From: Myxococcota bacterium
GTDB taxonomy: Bacteria; Myxococcota_A; UBA796; CAJQPC01
Length of the DNA stretch: 64,000 nucleotides
Assembly (NCBI GenBank): GCA_036229005.1
Contig: JAZAMN010000062.1
Location: forward strand, 54,257-118,256
Direction: 5' to 3'
In this document: in pieces, positions 34,215-43,800 of the stretch
Numbering within the stretch: the stretch's first letter is position 1
Layout of the letters: each line of letters opens with the position of its first letter
Translations under genes and position numbers: made by a program
The notes under the pieces: generated by a model
What the model saw: the letters and a program-made list of their open reading frames with translations, nothing else
Databases searched by the model: none
What the model was told of the DNA's origin: nothing

Positions 34215-34220
34215 TACGTA

Positions 34221-34226
34221 AGCGTA
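34221..34226 (-). promoter_or_regulatory. -10-like box TACGCT (leaderless start)
   Basis: 6 nt before ATG 34214. Confidence 0.5.
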
Positions 34227-34336
34227 GCTTGCTGGGCCGCGTTCCGGAAGGCCAGAGCCGCCGTCATCCTCTCGGGGATCAACCCATGGCGGGCGCGGCT
34301 GTGGTCGATAGGTAGTGCAGCCAAGGGAGCGTGAAC

Positions 34337-34939
34337 ATGGCCGGCAGACAGATACTCCTCCGCTACCAGGGGCAGGAGAGCGCCTTCGGGTTCTCGCGCC
34401 TGACCCGGGACAAGCTCTACGGAAAGCGCGTGCGGCAGCACCTGGACGGCAAGGGGGAGCCCTGCACCCGGGCCAGCCTGACCAGCGACGGCGCGATCCT
34501 GATCCAGAAGGGCATGACCGCCCAGGGCTACTTTGGCCCCCAAGGGGAGATGGTCTCGATCCGCGATCTGGTGGGCCTGGATGACAGCGGCCAGCCCCTG
34601 CCCGAGCAGCCCGGCACCCTGGGCGTGCCCCAGGACCTGAGCCCGGCGGCCCCCACCGAGCTGACAGACGTGCGCGTCCACGCGGTCTACGCCCTGGACC
34701 CGGAGAGCGTCTCGCCGGAGCTGGAGCAGGCCCTGGATCGCGGTGAGCTCTTCTCCTTCACCTTCAACTACCGGGCCGACTACCGCAGCGAGCTGGGCTT
34801 TCTGCTCCGCAACGACGCCGGCCTGTTCGCGCTGATCGGCCAGCCCCAGCGCTGGGCGTGGTCCGAGCTGGCCTCCCTGCCGGACGTGGTGGACGAAGAC
34901 ACCGCCGACGACGACAGCCTCGACTTCGAGATGTTCTGA
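34337..34939 (+). CDS. Hypothetical protein, possibly Ku-core-like (A)
   Basis: GGAG RBS 7 nt before ATG; first gene of the ligase operon; acidic tail; Ku resemblance is by eye only. Confidence 0.7.
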   Translation: MAGRQILLRYQGQESAFGFSRLTRDKLYGKRVRQHLDGKGEPCTRASLTSDGAILIQKGMTAQGYFGPQGEMVSIRDLVGLDDSGQPLPEQPGTLGVPQDLSPAAPTELTDVRVHAVYALDPESVSPELEQALDRGELFSFTFNYRADYRSELGFLLRNDAGLFALIGQPQRWAWSELASLPDVVDEDTADDDSLDFEMF

Positions 34940-35649
34940 TGCCTCAGTACCGCAAGCTCCACATCGCCAACGAAGACGGCCGCGACGCCACGGTCCTCTT
35001 TGCCCCGCTCAAGGCCGACAAGCCCCCCGAGAAGGGCCTCCCTGACGGCAGCCCCGTCCAGTTCAAGCGCTACCTGGCCTCCACGGAAGGCGGGCTGCAC
35101 GAGGCCCTCCAGGCGCGCCTGGGCGAAGACTACGGGCAGGCGTTGATCGATGGCGACCCCGAGGTCGACCGCGAGCTGGTTGGCCGCGAGATCGGCGAGA
35201 CCAACCAGGTCTTCCTCTCGTCCGAGGGCGAGGTCCTCTACGCCGCCCCCCGCGTGGTCGAGCTGCTGCTGGGCCCCGACGGCCAGGAGAAGGAGCGCCG
35301 GGCGCCCGTGGACACGCCGTCCAACGTCAACGACGAGATGCCGGTGCGCTGGACGGGCAAGATGATGCCCCGGCGGGACGTGGTGCGGCGCTTCCTGCTC
35401 AGCCGCAGCCTGCAGATCCAGCACGTGGACGGCCTGAGCTTCGACTACCTGCACGCCATGGCCAAGCGCCTGGACGAGGCCGATTCGATGGTGCTGGTCG
35501 GTGGCGGCGCCAAGGGCCGGGACCCTCTGGTCTTCCAGGTCAACGGCAGCCCCTACCGCGGCTTCTTGGAGGGGCGCGTGGACGGCCAGCGCTACCTGCT
35601 GCTGCTGCACCTCTCCAACATGGAGCTCAAGCTCCCCAAGGAGGCCTGA
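34939..35649 (+). CDS. Hypothetical protein, possibly Ku-core-like (B)
   Basis: TGATG coupling to the previous gene; 'DGSPVQFKRY' segment and beta-rich C-terminal half. Confidence 0.7.
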   Translation: MPQYRKLHIANEDGRDATVLFAPLKADKPPEKGLPDGSPVQFKRYLASTEGGLHEALQARLGEDYGQALIDGDPEVDRELVGREIGETNQVFLSSEGEVLYAAPRVVELLLGPDGQEKERRAPVDTPSNVNDEMPVRWTGKMMPRRDVVRRFLLSRSLQIQHVDGLSFDYLHAMAKRLDEADSMVLVGGGAKGRDPLVFQVNGSPYRGFLEGRVDGQRYLLLLHLSNMELKLPKEA

Positions 35650-37125
35650 GTGGACTTCATCGATCGCAGCAAGGCCAAGCCCCTGGGCGAGGGCGCCTTC
35701 CTCTGCCCTGAAGGCAGCGTGCTGGACCCCGAGCTCTCCGCGCTGGCCATCGCCTACAAGCGCACCGCCGCCCGCTACCGGGCCATGACCGCCGAGGAGA
35801 TCCCCGACCTGCCCTCGGGCGAGCTCTGGGTCTCCCCAAAGATCGACGGCCACCTGTGGCTGGCGGTGTTCGAGGCCGGCGAGGTCTGCCTGATCTCCCA
35901 CCGCAACCGCGTCATCTTCGGGGACCTGCCGGTGCTCAATGAGCTGCGCGAGCGCGTGGCCCCCAACACCCGCGGCCGCACCATCCTGGCCGGTGAGCTC
36001 TTCGCCCTGCGCCGCGAGGGCCGCCCCCGCTCCGGAGACGTGGGCGCCGCCCTCTCGGGGGGACCCGCCGCCCAGACCCAGCGCCTGGGCTTCTACATCT
36101 TCGACCTCTACCGGGGGGGCGACGCCGAGAACCCCGTCGCGACCGGCGAGTACTTCGAGCGCTGGGAGACCCTGGAGCGGCTGGTCGGCAAGGGCAAGCG
36201 GGCCCAGCTCGTACCCACCACGCCCGTCAAGAGCCAGGAGGCCGTGCAGGAGCTCTTCCAGAAGCACGCCATCGACGGCAAGGCCGAGGGCCTGGTCGTT
36301 CGCTCCGCGGACGGCCGCAGCTACAAGGTGAAGCCGGCGTTCGACCTGGACTGTGCGGTGATTGGGTTCACCGAGCGCCAGGGCGACGACGGCCGCATGT
36401 TGGTGCGCAGCGTGCTCCTGGCCGCCATGCGCAGCGACCGCCAGCTCCAGATCATCGGGAGCTGCGGGAACTTCGGCGGCGACGACGAACGGGCGGCCCT
36501 CTACCAGGAGCTCTCCGGCCTGGTGGTGGAGTCCAGCTACCGCTACCCCAGCTCGTCTGGCGCCCTCTACCGCTTCGTGAAGCCCGACCAGGTCCACCAG
36601 GTCCGGGTCACCGACATCCAGTCCGAAGACGGCAGCGGCGGCGCCATCATGCGCATGGTGCTGGCCTTCGACGACGCCCAGGGCTTCCACCCCGTGCGGC
36701 CCATGCCCGGCGTGTCCATCCTGCACCCGGTCTTCCAGCGGCGCCGCCCCGACAAGGCCGTCGACCCCCACGACGTGCGCCTGGCCCAGGTGCTCGAGCG
36801 CGTCGAGCTCTCCGAGACCGAGACCGTCGCCGAGCCCGTGGAGCTGCCCGAGAGCACCCTGCTGCGCCGCCAGGTCTGGACCAAGACCACCAAGGGCCAG
36901 GTGGCCGTGCGCAAGCTGCTGCTCTGGAAGACCGAGAAGGAGGCCGTGGACAGCCGCTTCCCCGCCTACGTGGTGCACTGGACCGACTACTCCCCGGGCC
37001 GCAAGGACCCCATCAAGCGGGAGGTGAAGCCAGCCGTGAGCCTTGAGCAGGCTGAGCACACCGCCCAGGAACTGGTCGCCAAGAACATCAAGCGGGGCTG
37101 GGCCCCCGTCGAGGACACGCTGTGA
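35650..37125 (+). CDS. ATP-dependent DNA ligase-like nucleotidyltransferase with OB fold and WGR-like C-terminal domain
   Basis: Motifs I 'SPKIDG', III 'GELF', IIIa 'FYIFD', IV 'EGLVVR', V 'YKVKP'; OB-type 'DCAVIGF'; C-terminal helix 'AQELVAKNIKRGW'. Confidence 0.85.
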   Translation: MDFIDRSKAKPLGEGAFLCPEGSVLDPELSALAIAYKRTAARYRAMTAEEIPDLPSGELWVSPKIDGHLWLAVFEAGEVCLISHRNRVIFGDLPVLNELRERVAPNTRGRTILAGELFALRREGRPRSGDVGAALSGGPAAQTQRLGFYIFDLYRGGDAENPVATGEYFERWETLERLVGKGKRAQLVPTTPVKSQEAVQELFQKHAIDGKAEGLVVRSADGRSYKVKPAFDLDCAVIGFTERQGDDGRMLVRSVLLAAMRSDRQLQIIGSCGNFGGDDERAALYQELSGLVVESSYRYPSSSGALYRFVKPDQVHQVRVTDIQSEDGSGGAIMRMVLAFDDAQGFHPVRPMPGVSILHPVFQRRRPDKAVDPHDVRLAQVLERVELSETETVAEPVELPESTLLRRQVWTKTTKGQVAVRKLLLWKTEKEAVDSRFPAYVVHWTDYSPGRKDPIKREVKPAVSLEQAEHTAQELVAKNIKRGWAPVEDTL

Positions 37126-39011
37126 GCCAAGAGCGCATCGACAACCTGGCCGCCCGCCTGGAGCAGGCCAACGCCGCCTACCGCGCCGGCGAGCCCACCA
37201 TGAGCGACGCCCGCTACGACGAGCTGGTCGAGGAGCTCCGCGGGCTCGCCCCCGAGCACCCCTGGCTGCACCAGGTCGAGGCCGAGGATCTGCCCGTCAA
37301 GGACCAGGTCCGCCACCCCAGCCCCATGCTCTCCACCGAGAAGGCCTACCAGCCCGCCGATCTGGAGCGCTGGGTGGAGCGCGTGCGCAAGGCCGCCGTG
37401 GAGCAGGGCATCGACACCGACTCCCTGGTCTTCCGCATGACCCCCAAGCTGGACGGGCTGGCCGGCCGCGACGACGGCCAGGTCCTCGCCACCCGGGGCA
37501 ACGGGCGCGTGGGCTACGACATCTCCAGCGCCTGGGACAAGGGCTTGGTCGCGGTGGGCGGCCGGGGCCAGGGCGTGGGTGAGATCGTGCTCGTGGAGTC
37601 CTGGTTCAACGAGCACCTCGCCGATGCCTTTGATCACCCTCGCAATGTCGCGGTGGGCATCGTCAAGGCCGACGAGGTGAACCAAGACTTCCTGGAGGCA
37701 CTCCAGGACGAGGTCGTCCGCTTCGTCCCCTACAGCAGCTTCAACACCCAGGACGGCACCGCCTGGGAGGGGAGCGCCCAGGAGCTGCTGGAGCAGACCG
37801 CCGAGATCACCGCCCGGCTCCGGGAGGCCGTCGACTACCCGCTGGACGGCATGGTCGTCGAGGTCCTGGGAGACCCCCTGCGCGCCTACATGGGCGCGAC
37901 CTCGCACCACCACCGCTGGCAGATCGCCCTCAAGGAGCGCGGCGAGCTGGTGCAGACCGTCGTCAACCAGGTCGTCTGGCAGACCGGCCGCACCGGCAAC
38001 GTCACCCCCGTGATGGAGGTCGAGCCCGTGCGCGTCAGCGGCGCCACCGTCTCCCGCGTCACGGCCCACCACGCCGGCATGATCCGGGACAAGGGCATCG
38101 GCCCCGGCGCGAGAATCGAGATCATCCGCTCCGGCGAGGTGATCCCCAAGCTGGAAGAGGTGCTCAGCCCCGTCGAGCCCACCCTGGTCTCCGCGTGCCC
38201 CTCCTGTGGCACCGAGCTGTCCTGGCGCAACGACTTCCTGGTCTGCGAGGCCGGCCTGGAGTGCCCCGCCCAGGTCGAGGCCGCCCTGCGCCACTGGTTC
38301 CGCACCCTGCGCACCGCCGACTTCTTTGGCCCCAAGACCATCGCGCGCCTGGTCGAGGGCCGCACCGATCTGGAGACGGGGGACATCGTCCAGCGCTGGG
38401 ACCGCCTGCCCAAGGTCTACGACCTGACCGAACAGGACCTGCGCACCCTGGGCTTCGGCCCGGGCCAGACCAAGAACCTGCTGGAGGCCCTGCAGATCTC
38501 CCGCTCCACCCCGGTCGAGGACGCCCGCTGGCTCGCCGCCTTTGGCATCCGGGATCTGGGGGTGGGGGACTCCCGCAAGCTGCTGGCGGCCTTCCACATC
38601 GAGGATCTGGGCGGCATCACCGCCGAGCAGATCGCCGCCATCAAGGGCTTCGGGGAGATCACCTCCCAGAGCATCGCCGCGGGCCTGGAGCGCCGCTGGC
38701 CGGTGATCTCCGAGATGCTCAGCCGCGGCTTCAACCTGGAGCGCACCCCCCTGGCCGGCGAGGCCCCGGAGATCGAGAGCCCCGTGGCCGGTAAGCGCGT
38801 GCTGTTCACCGGCAAGATGGTCCAGGGCACCCGCGACGACATGAAGACCCGGGCCAAGGCGCTGGGCGCGGTGCTCGCCAGCGGCGTGTCCAAGAACCTG
38901 GATCTGCTGGTCATCGGCGAGAAGGCCAGCCCCGCCAAGGTCGAGAAGGCCCGCAAAGCCGGCGTCGAGGTGCTGACCGAGGCCGAGTACCTGGCGCGGA
39001 TCGGGGGCTGA
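37122..39011 (+). CDS. Divergent NAD+-dependent DNA ligase (LigA family)
   Basis: Domain Ia 'Y..GEP.MSD.RYD', 'PKLDG', 'TRGNG', 'DGMVV', 'GRTG.VTPV', 'RSGEVIP', Cys4 Zn finger, HhH motifs and BRCT. Confidence 0.92.
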   Translation: MSQERIDNLAARLEQANAAYRAGEPTMSDARYDELVEELRGLAPEHPWLHQVEAEDLPVKDQVRHPSPMLSTEKAYQPADLERWVERVRKAAVEQGIDTDSLVFRMTPKLDGLAGRDDGQVLATRGNGRVGYDISSAWDKGLVAVGGRGQGVGEIVLVESWFNEHLADAFDHPRNVAVGIVKADEVNQDFLEALQDEVVRFVPYSSFNTQDGTAWEGSAQELLEQTAEITARLREAVDYPLDGMVVEVLGDPLRAYMGATSHHHRWQIALKERGELVQTVVNQVVWQTGRTGNVTPVMEVEPVRVSGATVSRVTAHHAGMIRDKGIGPGARIEIIRSGEVIPKLEEVLSPVEPTLVSACPSCGTELSWRNDFLVCEAGLECPAQVEAALRHWFRTLRTADFFGPKTIARLVEGRTDLETGDIVQRWDRLPKVYDLTEQDLRTLGFGPGQTKNLLEALQISRSTPVEDARWLAAFGIRDLGVGDSRKLLAAFHIEDLGGITAEQIAAIKGFGEITSQSIAAGLERRWPVISEMLSRGFNLERTPLAGEAPEIESPVAGKRVLFTGKMVQGTRDDMKTRAKALGAVLASGVSKNLDLLVIGEKASPAKVEKARKAGVEVLTEAEYLARIGG

Positions 39012-40814: not shown

Positions 40815-43800
40815 TCAGTTCCCCATGTTCTTCTTGTTGTCCCGCCCGATGCCCTGGTAGGCGCGAGAGGCCTCCTCCAGCCGCTGGATGTCGAAGCGCT
40901 TCTGCACGCGGGGGCCCAGGTCCTTGTAGAGGATGTCCTTGCCGTCGATCTTGATGGCGACGTCGCCGTCGACGAAGGCCTCGATCATGTCCTTGGCCTG
41001 GTTGTACTCCTGGTGGAGATCGGTGTCCATGACGCCGCCGGCGTCGGTGTTGATGGACACGTCCAGGTTGAAGTAGAGCGCCCTCAAGAGGGGATGCTCG
41101 GCGTAGTCCTGGATGGCGTTGGTCTGCTTGTTCGAGCCGATGTTCATCTCCACGTGGATGCCCATGGACTTGAGCTGACGGAGCTGACTGTCGGTGGCGT
41201 GGGTGATGTGGCCGGCGCGGATCTGCAGCTTGTCCTTGTCGTTCCCGAGCGCCTTCTGGACCTTGGCCACGGAGTCGATGAAGCCCTGGATGTTGTGCTG
41301 GGCCTTCTTGATCTCCGCCGCTCGGTCGACGCCCTCCGTGAAGTAGCCCTCACCGACGTGGACCCGGAACACCATCTCCTGGCCCTCGGCCAGCTTGCCT
41401 GCCTGCTCCAGACAGCAGTCGACGAACGCGTCCTGACCGCCCTGCTGGAAGAAGGGCTCGGCGCCCAGGTAGTCCACGCCGACGTGCAGCGGCATGTCCG
41501 CGTCCTGCGCCAGCGTGATGCCCTTGGCCCGGTCGCCCTCCTTCTTGGGCACGCCCATCGCCTTCTTCTTGGCGTCCGCCTGGTCCACGTTGCCCATGGT
41601 CTCCCGAGACCGGATGGAGGCCAGGAAGCGGACCTCGACCCCGGTCTCGTCCATCACCTTCTTGATGGTCTCCGGGTCCACCTTGGCGGAGTAGCCACCG
41701 GTCAGCTCGATGTAGGTGATGCCCTGCTTGGCGAGCCGCTCCAGCAGCACCCGGAAGTACTGCTCGGAGTCCGGCCTCGCGCCCTTCGAGGAGATCAGAG
41801 CGCGGATCTTGTAGACCTGGTCGTAGTCCAGCGTCCCCGCGACCAGCAGGTCATTGAGCAGCAGGTCTTGGCTCAGGTCTTCCGTGACCTGGTCCCGCTT
41901 GGCCAGGGTCTGCTCGATGGTGGCCTTGATCTGCTCGAACTTCTCGATCTCCGCGCGGGCGCGGTCCTTGGCGTCGGCAGCCGCGTTGGGGTTGTCGATC
42001 ACCTGCTGCTGCCGGTCGATGAGCCGGTCGAAGTGCTCCTCGTAGTTGTCGTCGATCAGCTTGAGCAGCTCCGTCTTGCCCTGCTCGTTGTCCCCGGCCT
42101 GGGTGTGGAGCTTGAGGATGTCGGAGGCCTCGAACACGCCGTTCTGGTGGTTGTGCAGCTCCGAGCGGCCCTTGATGGTCTTCCAGATCCGATCGGACAG
42201 CTTTGGACCGATCCCATCGACCTTCTGCAGGTCAGCGGGGCTGTTGAAGGGGCCGCCGTGCTTCACGATCTCGCCCGCCAGGTGCGGTCCGATGCCATCC
42301 ACGCCCATGAGCGCGGTCTTGAGGGCGTCGCCCTTGAGGTACTGGAGCGCGACGGGCACACCGTCTCGCTTGGTGTCGTTGGACTTGTCCTTGTGCTGCT
42401 GCGCGATGTCGTCGAGGCGCTTGTCGGTCGTGCTGACCTCTTCGCTGCCGCCGGACTCCGTGTGGGTCTCCGGCCCGTCGACGTGGAGCTCGCTCTGGGG
42501 CGCCTCGGTGTGCGGGGTCTCCGTGTGTGGGGTTTCGGTGTGGGTGGTGGTGGTGGTGTGGTCCCCCTGGTCCACCGCGTCAAAGTCCAGCTTGAGCTGG
42601 CCAGCGTCCTCCACCACATTGGGCTTGGTGGTCCCGCCGCCGGTCACATCCTGGACGGTCTTGTCGCCGCTCTTGTCATCCGAACCGCCATAGGTCACGG
42701 CCTCGGTGGGGTCGAACATGTCGAGCTGCACGCTCTCGAAGTCCGGCTTGCTGAACTTGTCTGGGTGCTCCTGATGCAGCGTGAGCTGGTGGCCCGGCGC
42801 CAGGCGGGACTGGATGTCCGCGGCCGCGTCGTCGGTGATGTTCCCCATGTGGTCGACCGTCTCCTGGGGGAGGTTGACCAGGCGGTTCATCTTGCGGACC
42901 TGAGACTGGATGGAGATCTCGGCGCCGCCGGCCCCGGCGAACTTCTCCAGGGTCTTCTGGAGCAGGGCCAGGTGCACGTCGTCGCCGGACATGACCACCG
43001 GATCCGAGACGATCTCGGTGATGGTCTCGCCCATGGCGTTCACCCACTTCTTGCCCGGGTCGGCGACCTTGTCGGCCAGGCTCTCGTTGGCGACGCCGCC
43101 GACGGAGCCCACGACCATCTTGAAGGAGGACACACCCAGGATGGCCAGGAACTCGTCCCAGTCGCCGGTCCAGGTCTTCTCGTCCATCAGGATGCCCTGC
43201 AGCTCGCCCGGAGCCGAGGAGATGATGCCCGCCAGGACCTTGGCCTTGAGCCCCTGCTCGCCGAGCTCCTGCAGGAACTTGCCGAACTGCTTGAACTTGC
43301 TGGGGCCGATGCCCGCCGTGGCCATGCCGATCAGCGCCTCACCCGCCAGCATGGAGAAGTCGGTGAGGGCCTCACCCGGGCCGTAGGCGGCGCCCTTCAT
43401 GGTGGACTTGATCATCATGTTGACCGCCGCGGCGCCGGCGCCGATGGCGATGCCCACCCACAGGGGCCCCAGGGCGCCCGCGGTCACGATGGTGGAGACC
43501 ACCGCCGCGATGGTCGTGATGACCGAGGTGATGCCGTTGACCAGGGTCTCCCGCTGGTCCTTGTAGATGCCCCCCATGGTGTCGAGCAGCTCGGTGTACT
43601 TCTGCCACTCGGCGTACTTGTCGCCGGTCAGGTCGTGGGGGGTGCCGGTCTCCGGGTCGTACCAGCTCGTGTCCGCCTTGAGCTCCTTGAGCTTCTCCCA
43701 CTTGGCGTCCAGGTCGTTGCCGGAGTCCGAGTAGATGTCCATCAGGCCGTTCGAGATCAGGCCCTGCTTCCGGTACCACTCCCACTTGGTCTGCGCCCGG

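Follow-up and report, generated by a model that had tools for sequence, protein, structure and literature searches.

Three adjoining genes, here named A, B and C, probably encode a cryptic DNA end-joining system in which A and B would form a heterodimeric Ku, and C, an ATP-dependent DNA ligase, would act without the processing domains of LigD. The genes lie in a 64,000-nt stretch of contig JAZAMN010000062.1 from a Myxococcota bacterium (hereafter the window; source genome G000, 6.4 Mb, 94% complete). The probability of this reading, in which DNA binding and joining are the inferred part, was put at roughly 0.6. The trio itself, the intact motifs of C, the absence of LigD domains and the near-exclusion of canonical Ku were read from sequence; the Ku fold and the A-B dimer are predicted. 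An original prediction, made from the letters of the window alone, had joined these genes and the one that follows (D) into a four-gene end-joining operon with two Ku-like proteins, an ATP ligase with a WGR-like tail and a second, NAD-dependent ligase. The features concerned are as follows.

34337-34939, + strand: gene A, 200 aa from the ATG at 34337
34877-34936, + strand: acidic tail of A, residues 181-200, with a net charge averaging -9 and a conserved D-F-x-M-F at its end
34939-35649, + strand: gene B, 236 aa
35650-37125, + strand: gene C, 491 aa, ATP-dependent DNA ligase
36847-37110, + strand: C-terminal domain of C, residues 400-487, with column identity averaging 65% in 42 members
37122-39011, + strand: gene D, 629 aa, compact NAD-dependent LigA

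Predicted structures of A and B

No family match to A or B was found in Pfam (none at E ≤ 1), NCBIfam, PHROGs or PADLOC, and neither protein matches the Ku profile PF02735. Profile searches of PDB sequences gave nothing meaningful (best E of 0.026 for A, to a phage head-closure protein, and of 1.5 for B), and a search of the ESM Atlas by features returned only unnamed clusters below 0.9, the Ku rows for A falling under the bar. Homologues in 90% clusters numbered 210 for A and 1792 for B, and both are therefore real genes; a profile of A matched 811 representatives at 50% clustering.

AlphaFold (AF2) models were built from 120-row alignments and reached a predicted local distance difference test (pLDDT) of 80.6 for A and 83.2 for B, the arms being the least confident parts of these single-chain models. 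Both models show the Ku beta-barrel and ring arm. In A the predicted core spans residues 1-174 and is followed by the 26-residue acidic tail, mostly of low confidence; for B the prediction is a minimal Ku core whose ring arm is longer. In Foldseek searches the top matches of A were the Ku proteins of B. subtilis and M. tuberculosis (E of 1e-4 to 4e-4), the top four matches of B were bacterial Ku (E of 4e-6 to 7e-6), and Ku-containing entries occurred throughout among the matches listed for both. Only two viral matches of B had a probability of 1.00, and both were phage Ku. A second structure search, independent of Foldseek and scored by VIA Z-scores, aligned A with B. subtilis Ku at Z 9.9 (155 residues, root mean square deviation (rmsd) 7.1) and with M. 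tuberculosis Ku at Z 9.6 (151 residues, rmsd 4.4), and B with Ku80 at Z 12.8 (127 residues, rmsd 3.2) and with M. tuberculosis Ku at Z 12.5 (167 residues, rmsd 4.0). SPOC and related barrels scored Z 7-11 and unrelated folds at most 3.8. Since the alignments to bacterial Ku run over 151-167 residues, and those to barrel-only SPOC relatives over no more than 118, the match includes the ring arm. The alignments of A and B stop at residue 188 of B. subtilis Ku and at residues 174-178 of M. tuberculosis Ku, where the C-terminal helix starts; the C-terminal helical arm and LigD-binding tail of bacterial Ku are absent from both proteins. The alpha-3 helix of B. subtilis Ku includes residues 206-217 (PMC12784961).

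A and B are thus predicted, on these models, to have the Ku core fold. The original suggestion that both unknown open reading frames (ORFs) are Ku-like was borne out by AlphaFold with Foldseek and by the second structure search, each of which put Ku first for A and for B; in the comparison with Ku, the match appeared at the level of structure and a sequence-profile match did not.

Predicted pairing and DNA contacts

The A+B complex was predicted with a score of 0.78, the best of 3 controls scoring 0.00; of 157 solved complexes 116 come up to that mark, and of 215 mismatched pairs 2. Runs agreed in at least 85% of contacts, with a partner pLDDT of at least 77 and 315-349 contacts, and the predicted interface is formed by the two arms (A 22-88; B 20-49 and 85-115) together with the two barrels. 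A had a pLDDT of 81-82 with B and of 56-58 with unrelated partners, and B was likewise higher in the pair. A and B are therefore predicted to pair with each other. The complex originally proposed for the two proteins is supported as a prediction for the A+B pair modelled, subject to a possible likeness to solved Ku dimers.

Conserved basic residues are R4, R21, R24, K26, R31, R33 and R146 in A, where they cluster at the start of the arm, and R15, R44, R120, K141, R156, R207, R213 and K231 in B. B. subtilis Ku contacts DNA at the start of its ring (L48-S50, K60, Y61, K79) and on its barrel (H19-K23, K36, R126, Y128, R161, R188) (PMC12784961). By offset, not by residue-level superposition, the basic residues of A would lie at positions similar to these contacts. 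Residues 183-200 of A lie outside the confident predicted interface with B, and 218 of 241 A homologues have DF among their last six residues. The acidic D-F-x-M-F tail is likely a docking peptide for a partner, perhaps ligase C.

Ligase C

C matched PF01068 (E 2e-8) and the OB domain PF04679 (E 1e-7), the nucleotidyltransferase part lying at about residues 52-225 with the catalytic lysine at K64 and the OB domain at about residues 251-369, and it is the only PF01068 match in genome G000. KxDG and the other nucleotidyltransferase motif residues are kept in 94-103 of 103 aligned ligases, and the catalytic lysine in 100 of them. No LigD polymerase or phosphoesterase domain was found in C by Pfam scan, and genome G000 had no match to PF02735 or to the LigD polymerase/phosphoesterase profiles PF21686 and PF13298. 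C thus has an ATP-dependent ligase domain with intact motifs, encoded by a gene linked to Ku-like genes, and the originally described combination of ATP-ligase motifs and an OB fold without the LigD polymerase and phosphoesterase domains was confirmed. No PADLOC defence-system match was found for C, as for A and B.

The C-terminal domain is WGR-like only in its last helix and its K-x-G-W end, and its consensus is without the W-G-R residues. None of 42 C tails matched the Pfam WGR profile (PF05406), whereas hhalign against 10 WGR domains gave 84.6% and E 6.8e-6 over the last 46 columns only; against the PDB nothing better than E 0.56 was found for this domain. Of the WGR-like tail originally claimed, a partial profile likeness remains, and the Pfam match and the W-G-R residues do not.

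A conserved three-gene unit

Relatives of B are encoded in 525 stretches identified by a pattern scan of GTDB genomes, and the best 80 of these were used for a neighbourhood survey. Most of the best related loci are from genomes with the titles Myxococcota, Deltaproteobacteria or uncultured proteobacterium; Acidobacteriota, Planctomycetota, Actinomycetota and others appear lower in the ranking. C stood directly after B in all 77 loci where the DNA reached far enough, and in 64 of 70 the gene directly before B was A; among the six exceptions, A lay within 5 kb in two, elsewhere in the genome in three (once in two pieces) and gave no match in one. Of 40 further loci (32 genomes, partly overlapping the earlier ones), 39 had A and all 40 had C or its tail; a second phylum contributed 13 loci (10 genomes), each of them with A and with C in whole or in part. 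No other gene stood beside the trio in more than 13 of the 80 loci, the cluster with that count being protein kinase-like by eye. A fourth conserved partner was sought in the 80 loci and rejected, the larger clusters of ORFs other than A, B and C being opposite-strand or off-frame shadows. Distance correlations among A, B and C were 0.81-0.86, as expected from shared descent, and no evidence was drawn from them. The conserved unit is three genes, A-B-C, not four: of the linkage originally proposed, the tie of A and B to the ATP ligase was found in many genomes, and the tie to the NAD ligase in 3 of 54 loci.

A protein of the RNase H superfamily (PF13482) was encoded near the trio in five loci (L049:938-2398, L059, L072, L075 and L079) and is possibly an end-processing nuclease in this subset. 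At L075:8750-10606, a DUF4062 domain lies inside the span of the ligase homologue.

Gene D

D has the domain set of NAD-dependent LigA (KxDG adenylation, OB, zinc finger, HhH and BRCT) in a compact form: adenylation, OB and BRCT scored above cut-off, HhH (E 1e-4) and the zinc finger (E 0.36) below, and the whole protein reached 316 bits against a TIGR00575 cut-off of 444. The original description of D as a LigA-family protein holds for the domain set. The phage ligase profile phrog_3869 scored D higher (390 bits) than did TIGR00575.

No LigA other than D was found in the 94%-complete genome, and D does not appear to be an accessory to a separate housekeeping LigA. Across 26 related genomes, a compact LigA (55-100% identity) was the only full-length LigA match in 8, and the other 18 had a more distant match (about 31-42%; two partial). 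In five of these 8, B lies nearby on the same contig, and three (G106, G309 and G310) have no B match; conversely, G019 and G171 have B together with an ordinary LigA on another contig. The A-B-C-D arrangement recurs in four relatives (G211, G306, G307 and G311). Because D-type LigA occurs in genomes where B was not found, and B with ordinary LigA elsewhere, the four-gene string is a local arrangement in two genera, and D is likely the ordinary housekeeping NAD ligase of the cell, a local neighbour outside the conserved unit.

Distribution and variants

Among 301 genomes of the same phylum, B was found in 41 and PF02735 Ku in 62, with an overlap of 0 where 8.4 were expected; among 301 genomes of the second phylum the counts were 11 and 41, with an overlap of 0 where 1.5 were expected. 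This distribution fits replacement of canonical non-homologous end joining (NHEJ), and the near-exclusion of B and canonical Ku fits a shared role.

In genome G023 the trio is present nine times, in diverged copies whose A is 60-96% identical to that of the first, and in G493 three times. A long variant of C occurs in L118-L126 (G023), L127 (G047), L128 (G029) and L178-L182 (G493, G654 and G585, all of the second phylum), with an AAA ATPase domain (PF00004) after an unknown region with several cysteines in all 13 forms scanned. Several of the G023 copies adjoin serine recombinase, DUF2924, Fic or SNF2 genes, which suggests a mobile element. The eukaryotic AAA ATPase p97 clears Ku80 from religated DNA on which it is trapped (PMC5577460); by analogy, and as speculation, the fused ATPase might remove its Ku-like ring in the same way.

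At L151:4554-5735 (- strand), a B homologue is fused to the ligase C-terminal domain, with A adjacent; because of this fusion, it is hinted that the domain works with the Ku-like ring.

Proposed mechanism and alternative explanations

In the proposed system, the A-B ring would load onto a double-strand DNA end and hold it, the DNA presumably threading through the ring by way of the conserved basic residues. The ring would recruit C through the D-F-x-M-F tail of A or the C-terminal domain of C, either of which may stand in for the ordinary Ku C-terminal arm that A and B lack, and C would seal ligatable ends with ATP. Such a system would prefer clean, directly ligatable ends such as nuclease cuts, with end processing left to other enzymes. 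A broader reading, which is tentative and on balance doubtful, would make A-B-C a separate, widespread prokaryotic branch of end joining: an obligate asymmetric Ku heterodimer missed by Ku surveys that replaces Ku-LigD in hundreds of species, docks its ligase on one side of the ring by the acidic tail of A and, in one mobile sub-clade, uses an AAA+ ATPase to strip off the ring left trapped by joining, in the way that eukaryotic p97 acts on Ku80.

Several observations weigh against a heterodimeric Ku that joins ends. Comparison of A and B with 30 canonical Ku proteins by hhalign gave a probability below 1% for both, although A aligned colinearly with the canonical Ku profile over 156 columns despite that value; the profiles of A and B did not match each other significantly (0.4-21%), the two proteins being barely alignable. 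TM-scores to Ku in the top Foldseek rows were 0.40-0.50. Because Ku dimers have already been solved, the A-B complex score may owe to likeness to them. Both proteins are net acidic (isoelectric points of 4.45 and 5.49; canonical Ku cores, median -2). The nominal P of 4e-5 for the exclusion of B and Ku is overstated, since kin are not independent, the exclusion in the second phylum is not significant (P 0.19), and 7 of 50 carriers of the trio, drawn from the 80 loci, also have canonical Ku. Across the 80 loci the trio is not accompanied by a processing enzyme, three ligase C homologues are without catalytic motifs, and no ligase domain was found in the 10.7 kb around the B-tail fusion of L151.

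Some of these points bear on other explanations. Protection of DNA ends from exonucleases is a role of phage Mu Gam and phage Ku, and the A-B ring might mainly shield ends in this way, with the ligase closing nicks or the ends of elements and the unit serving mobile DNA or recombination and not general break joining. The degenerate or missing ligases beside B support such protection (catalytic motifs lost in L055, L149 and L152, the whole nucleotidyltransferase part lost in L188, none found at L151), as do the nine copies in G023, several of them by serine recombinase, DUF2924 or Fic genes, and the three in G493. We nevertheless consider it unlikely: against it stand the catalytic lysine kept in nearly all aligned ligases, the single match in 39 of the 41 B carriers of the phylum sample, the native GC of these genes in the window, the absence of any mobility gene among the neighbours scanned there and the failure to find B in IMG/VR, phage or plasmid collections. 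Quite unlikely is an arrangement in which A and B each form a homodimer of their own, or in which only B acts as the Ku and A is a loosely bound accessory. Known bacterial Ku structures are homodimeric (PMC12784961), A stands apart from B in 6 of 70 loci, and a search for it in 5 genomes, incomplete ones, failed in 2; against this, A was found elsewhere in the other 3, the stop and start codons of A and B overlap, and the predicted interface is large, with both chains at higher pLDDT together than apart.

The net acidity of A and B, the Z-scores of SPOC and related barrels and the low confidence of the arms in the single-chain models would all suit a protein-binding adaptor, in which a Ku/SPOC barrel helps C to seal nicks in a LigC-like excision repair; minimal Lig C ligases act mainly in base-excision repair (PMC7470946). 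This we rate as very unlikely, given that A and B keep a long arm that SPOC lacks and that aligns to Ku, that the basic residues cluster at the start of the arm of A, and that the near-exclusion with canonical Ku fits a role shared with it. The scheme least in keeping with the data is the one originally put forward, a four-gene system whose Ku-like ring loads two ligases with different cofactors, and it is most improbable. D overlaps C by 4 bases and the order recurs in the four relatives named above, so that co-transcription and some use of D at breaks are possible; but D is the only LigA found in its genome and follows C in 3 of 54 loci, its type occurs where B was not found, and B occurs with an ordinary LigA on another contig. 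Two-cofactor loading was rejected on the first two of these grounds, and the idea of a second dedicated ligase is not supported; for the accompanying suggestion of a counter to NAD or ATP depletion, nothing was found in support.

Relation to known systems

The canonical Ku homodimer (PF02735) with LigD, as in B. subtilis and M. tuberculosis (PDB 9vnq, 9i91 and 8v53), shares with the trio the barrel-plus-arm fold, predicted for A and B, the linkage of Ku genes to a PF01068 + PF04679 ATP ligase, and a sporadic distribution. It differs in that A and B are two unlike subunits without a PF02735 sequence match, end where the C-terminal helix and LigD-binding tail begin and have, by eye, no GLVNIP filament motif; C, unlike LigD, is without the polymerase and phosphoesterase domains and carries a C-terminal domain of its own. 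Eukaryotic Ku70/Ku80 is heterodimeric, as predicted for A-B, and the Ku80 core is among the top matches of B (Z 12.8), tied with bacterial Ku; A and B have none of its vWA, SAP and DNA-PK-binding domains, and there is no evidence of a kinship closer than that to bacterial Ku.

A bacterial Ku heterodimer encoded by neighbouring genes has been proposed from genetics for Ku3-Ku4 of Sinorhizobium meliloti, which works with LigD4 (PMC6379672), so the idea of such a heterodimer is not new. Ku3 and Ku4 are treated there as ordinary Ku orthologues used with a LigD, whereas A and B escape Ku profiles, can hardly be aligned with each other and are partnered by a different ligase; the A/B family appears to be new. 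Ligases without polymerase or phosphoesterase alongside Ku are described for 'nonconventional NHEJ' (PMC7719229) and for the minimal Lig C ligases (PMC7470946), from which C differs by its additional conserved C-terminal domain. ATP ligases with a WGR-type appendage occur in similar taxa, the delta-proteobacteria and planctomycetes, with OB-2 (PF14743) and a WGR domain that Pfam recognises (PMC7470946), in contrast to the PF04679 domain and the tail without a Pfam WGR match in C. No published account of the A-B-C trio was found in a literature search that left most subscription journals outside its reach, and within that reach the original view of the genes as undescribed stands.

Gene layout, base composition and neighbouring genes

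The four plus-strand ORFs and their junctions are as originally described: TGATG at 34937-34941, TGA abutting GTG at 35649/35650 and GTGA at 37122-37125. AAGGGAG stands 7 nt before the ATG of A at 34337, and an in-frame GTG lies at 34331. A, B, C and D have a GC content of 0.70 and of 0.94-0.96 at third codon positions, a genome-like GC and codon bias. A promoter scan gave no sigma-70 match. Short words are common, by eye, to the region upstream of A in the window (34215-34336) and in L001-L004 (e.g., GCGTA and GATAGG/AATAGG); in these closest relatives they are possibly a regulatory site. One metatranscriptome matched C and D with 0.06 of words and two contigs (199 and 254 bases; 95-99% alike), which shows neither transcription nor habitat. 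Downstream, at 40815-47519 (- strand), the window encodes a 2234-aa protein, which may be a polymorphic bacterial toxin and which combines annexin repeats and helix-hairpin-helix motifs with an adenosine-deaminase-like domain at its C terminus.

Significance

Bacterial surveys report a recognisable Ku in about 22% of genomes, and the survey concerned sought homologues of the known Ku and LigD domains (PMC7719229), so that genomes with the trio would likely be scored as lacking Ku. If the proposed reading is true, many 'NHEJ-negative' genomes would be misclassified, B relatives being encoded at 525 places in GTDB and in 41 of 301 genomes of the phylum. A and B together (about 440 residues) would then be the smallest two-subunit Ku, suited to asking what a heterodimer adds, and the trio would be a model for ligase recruitment without a Ku C-terminal arm. 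It could also serve as a compact three-gene joining kit for genome editing, and the AAA-fused variant would open the removal of Ku after ligation in bacteria to direct testing.

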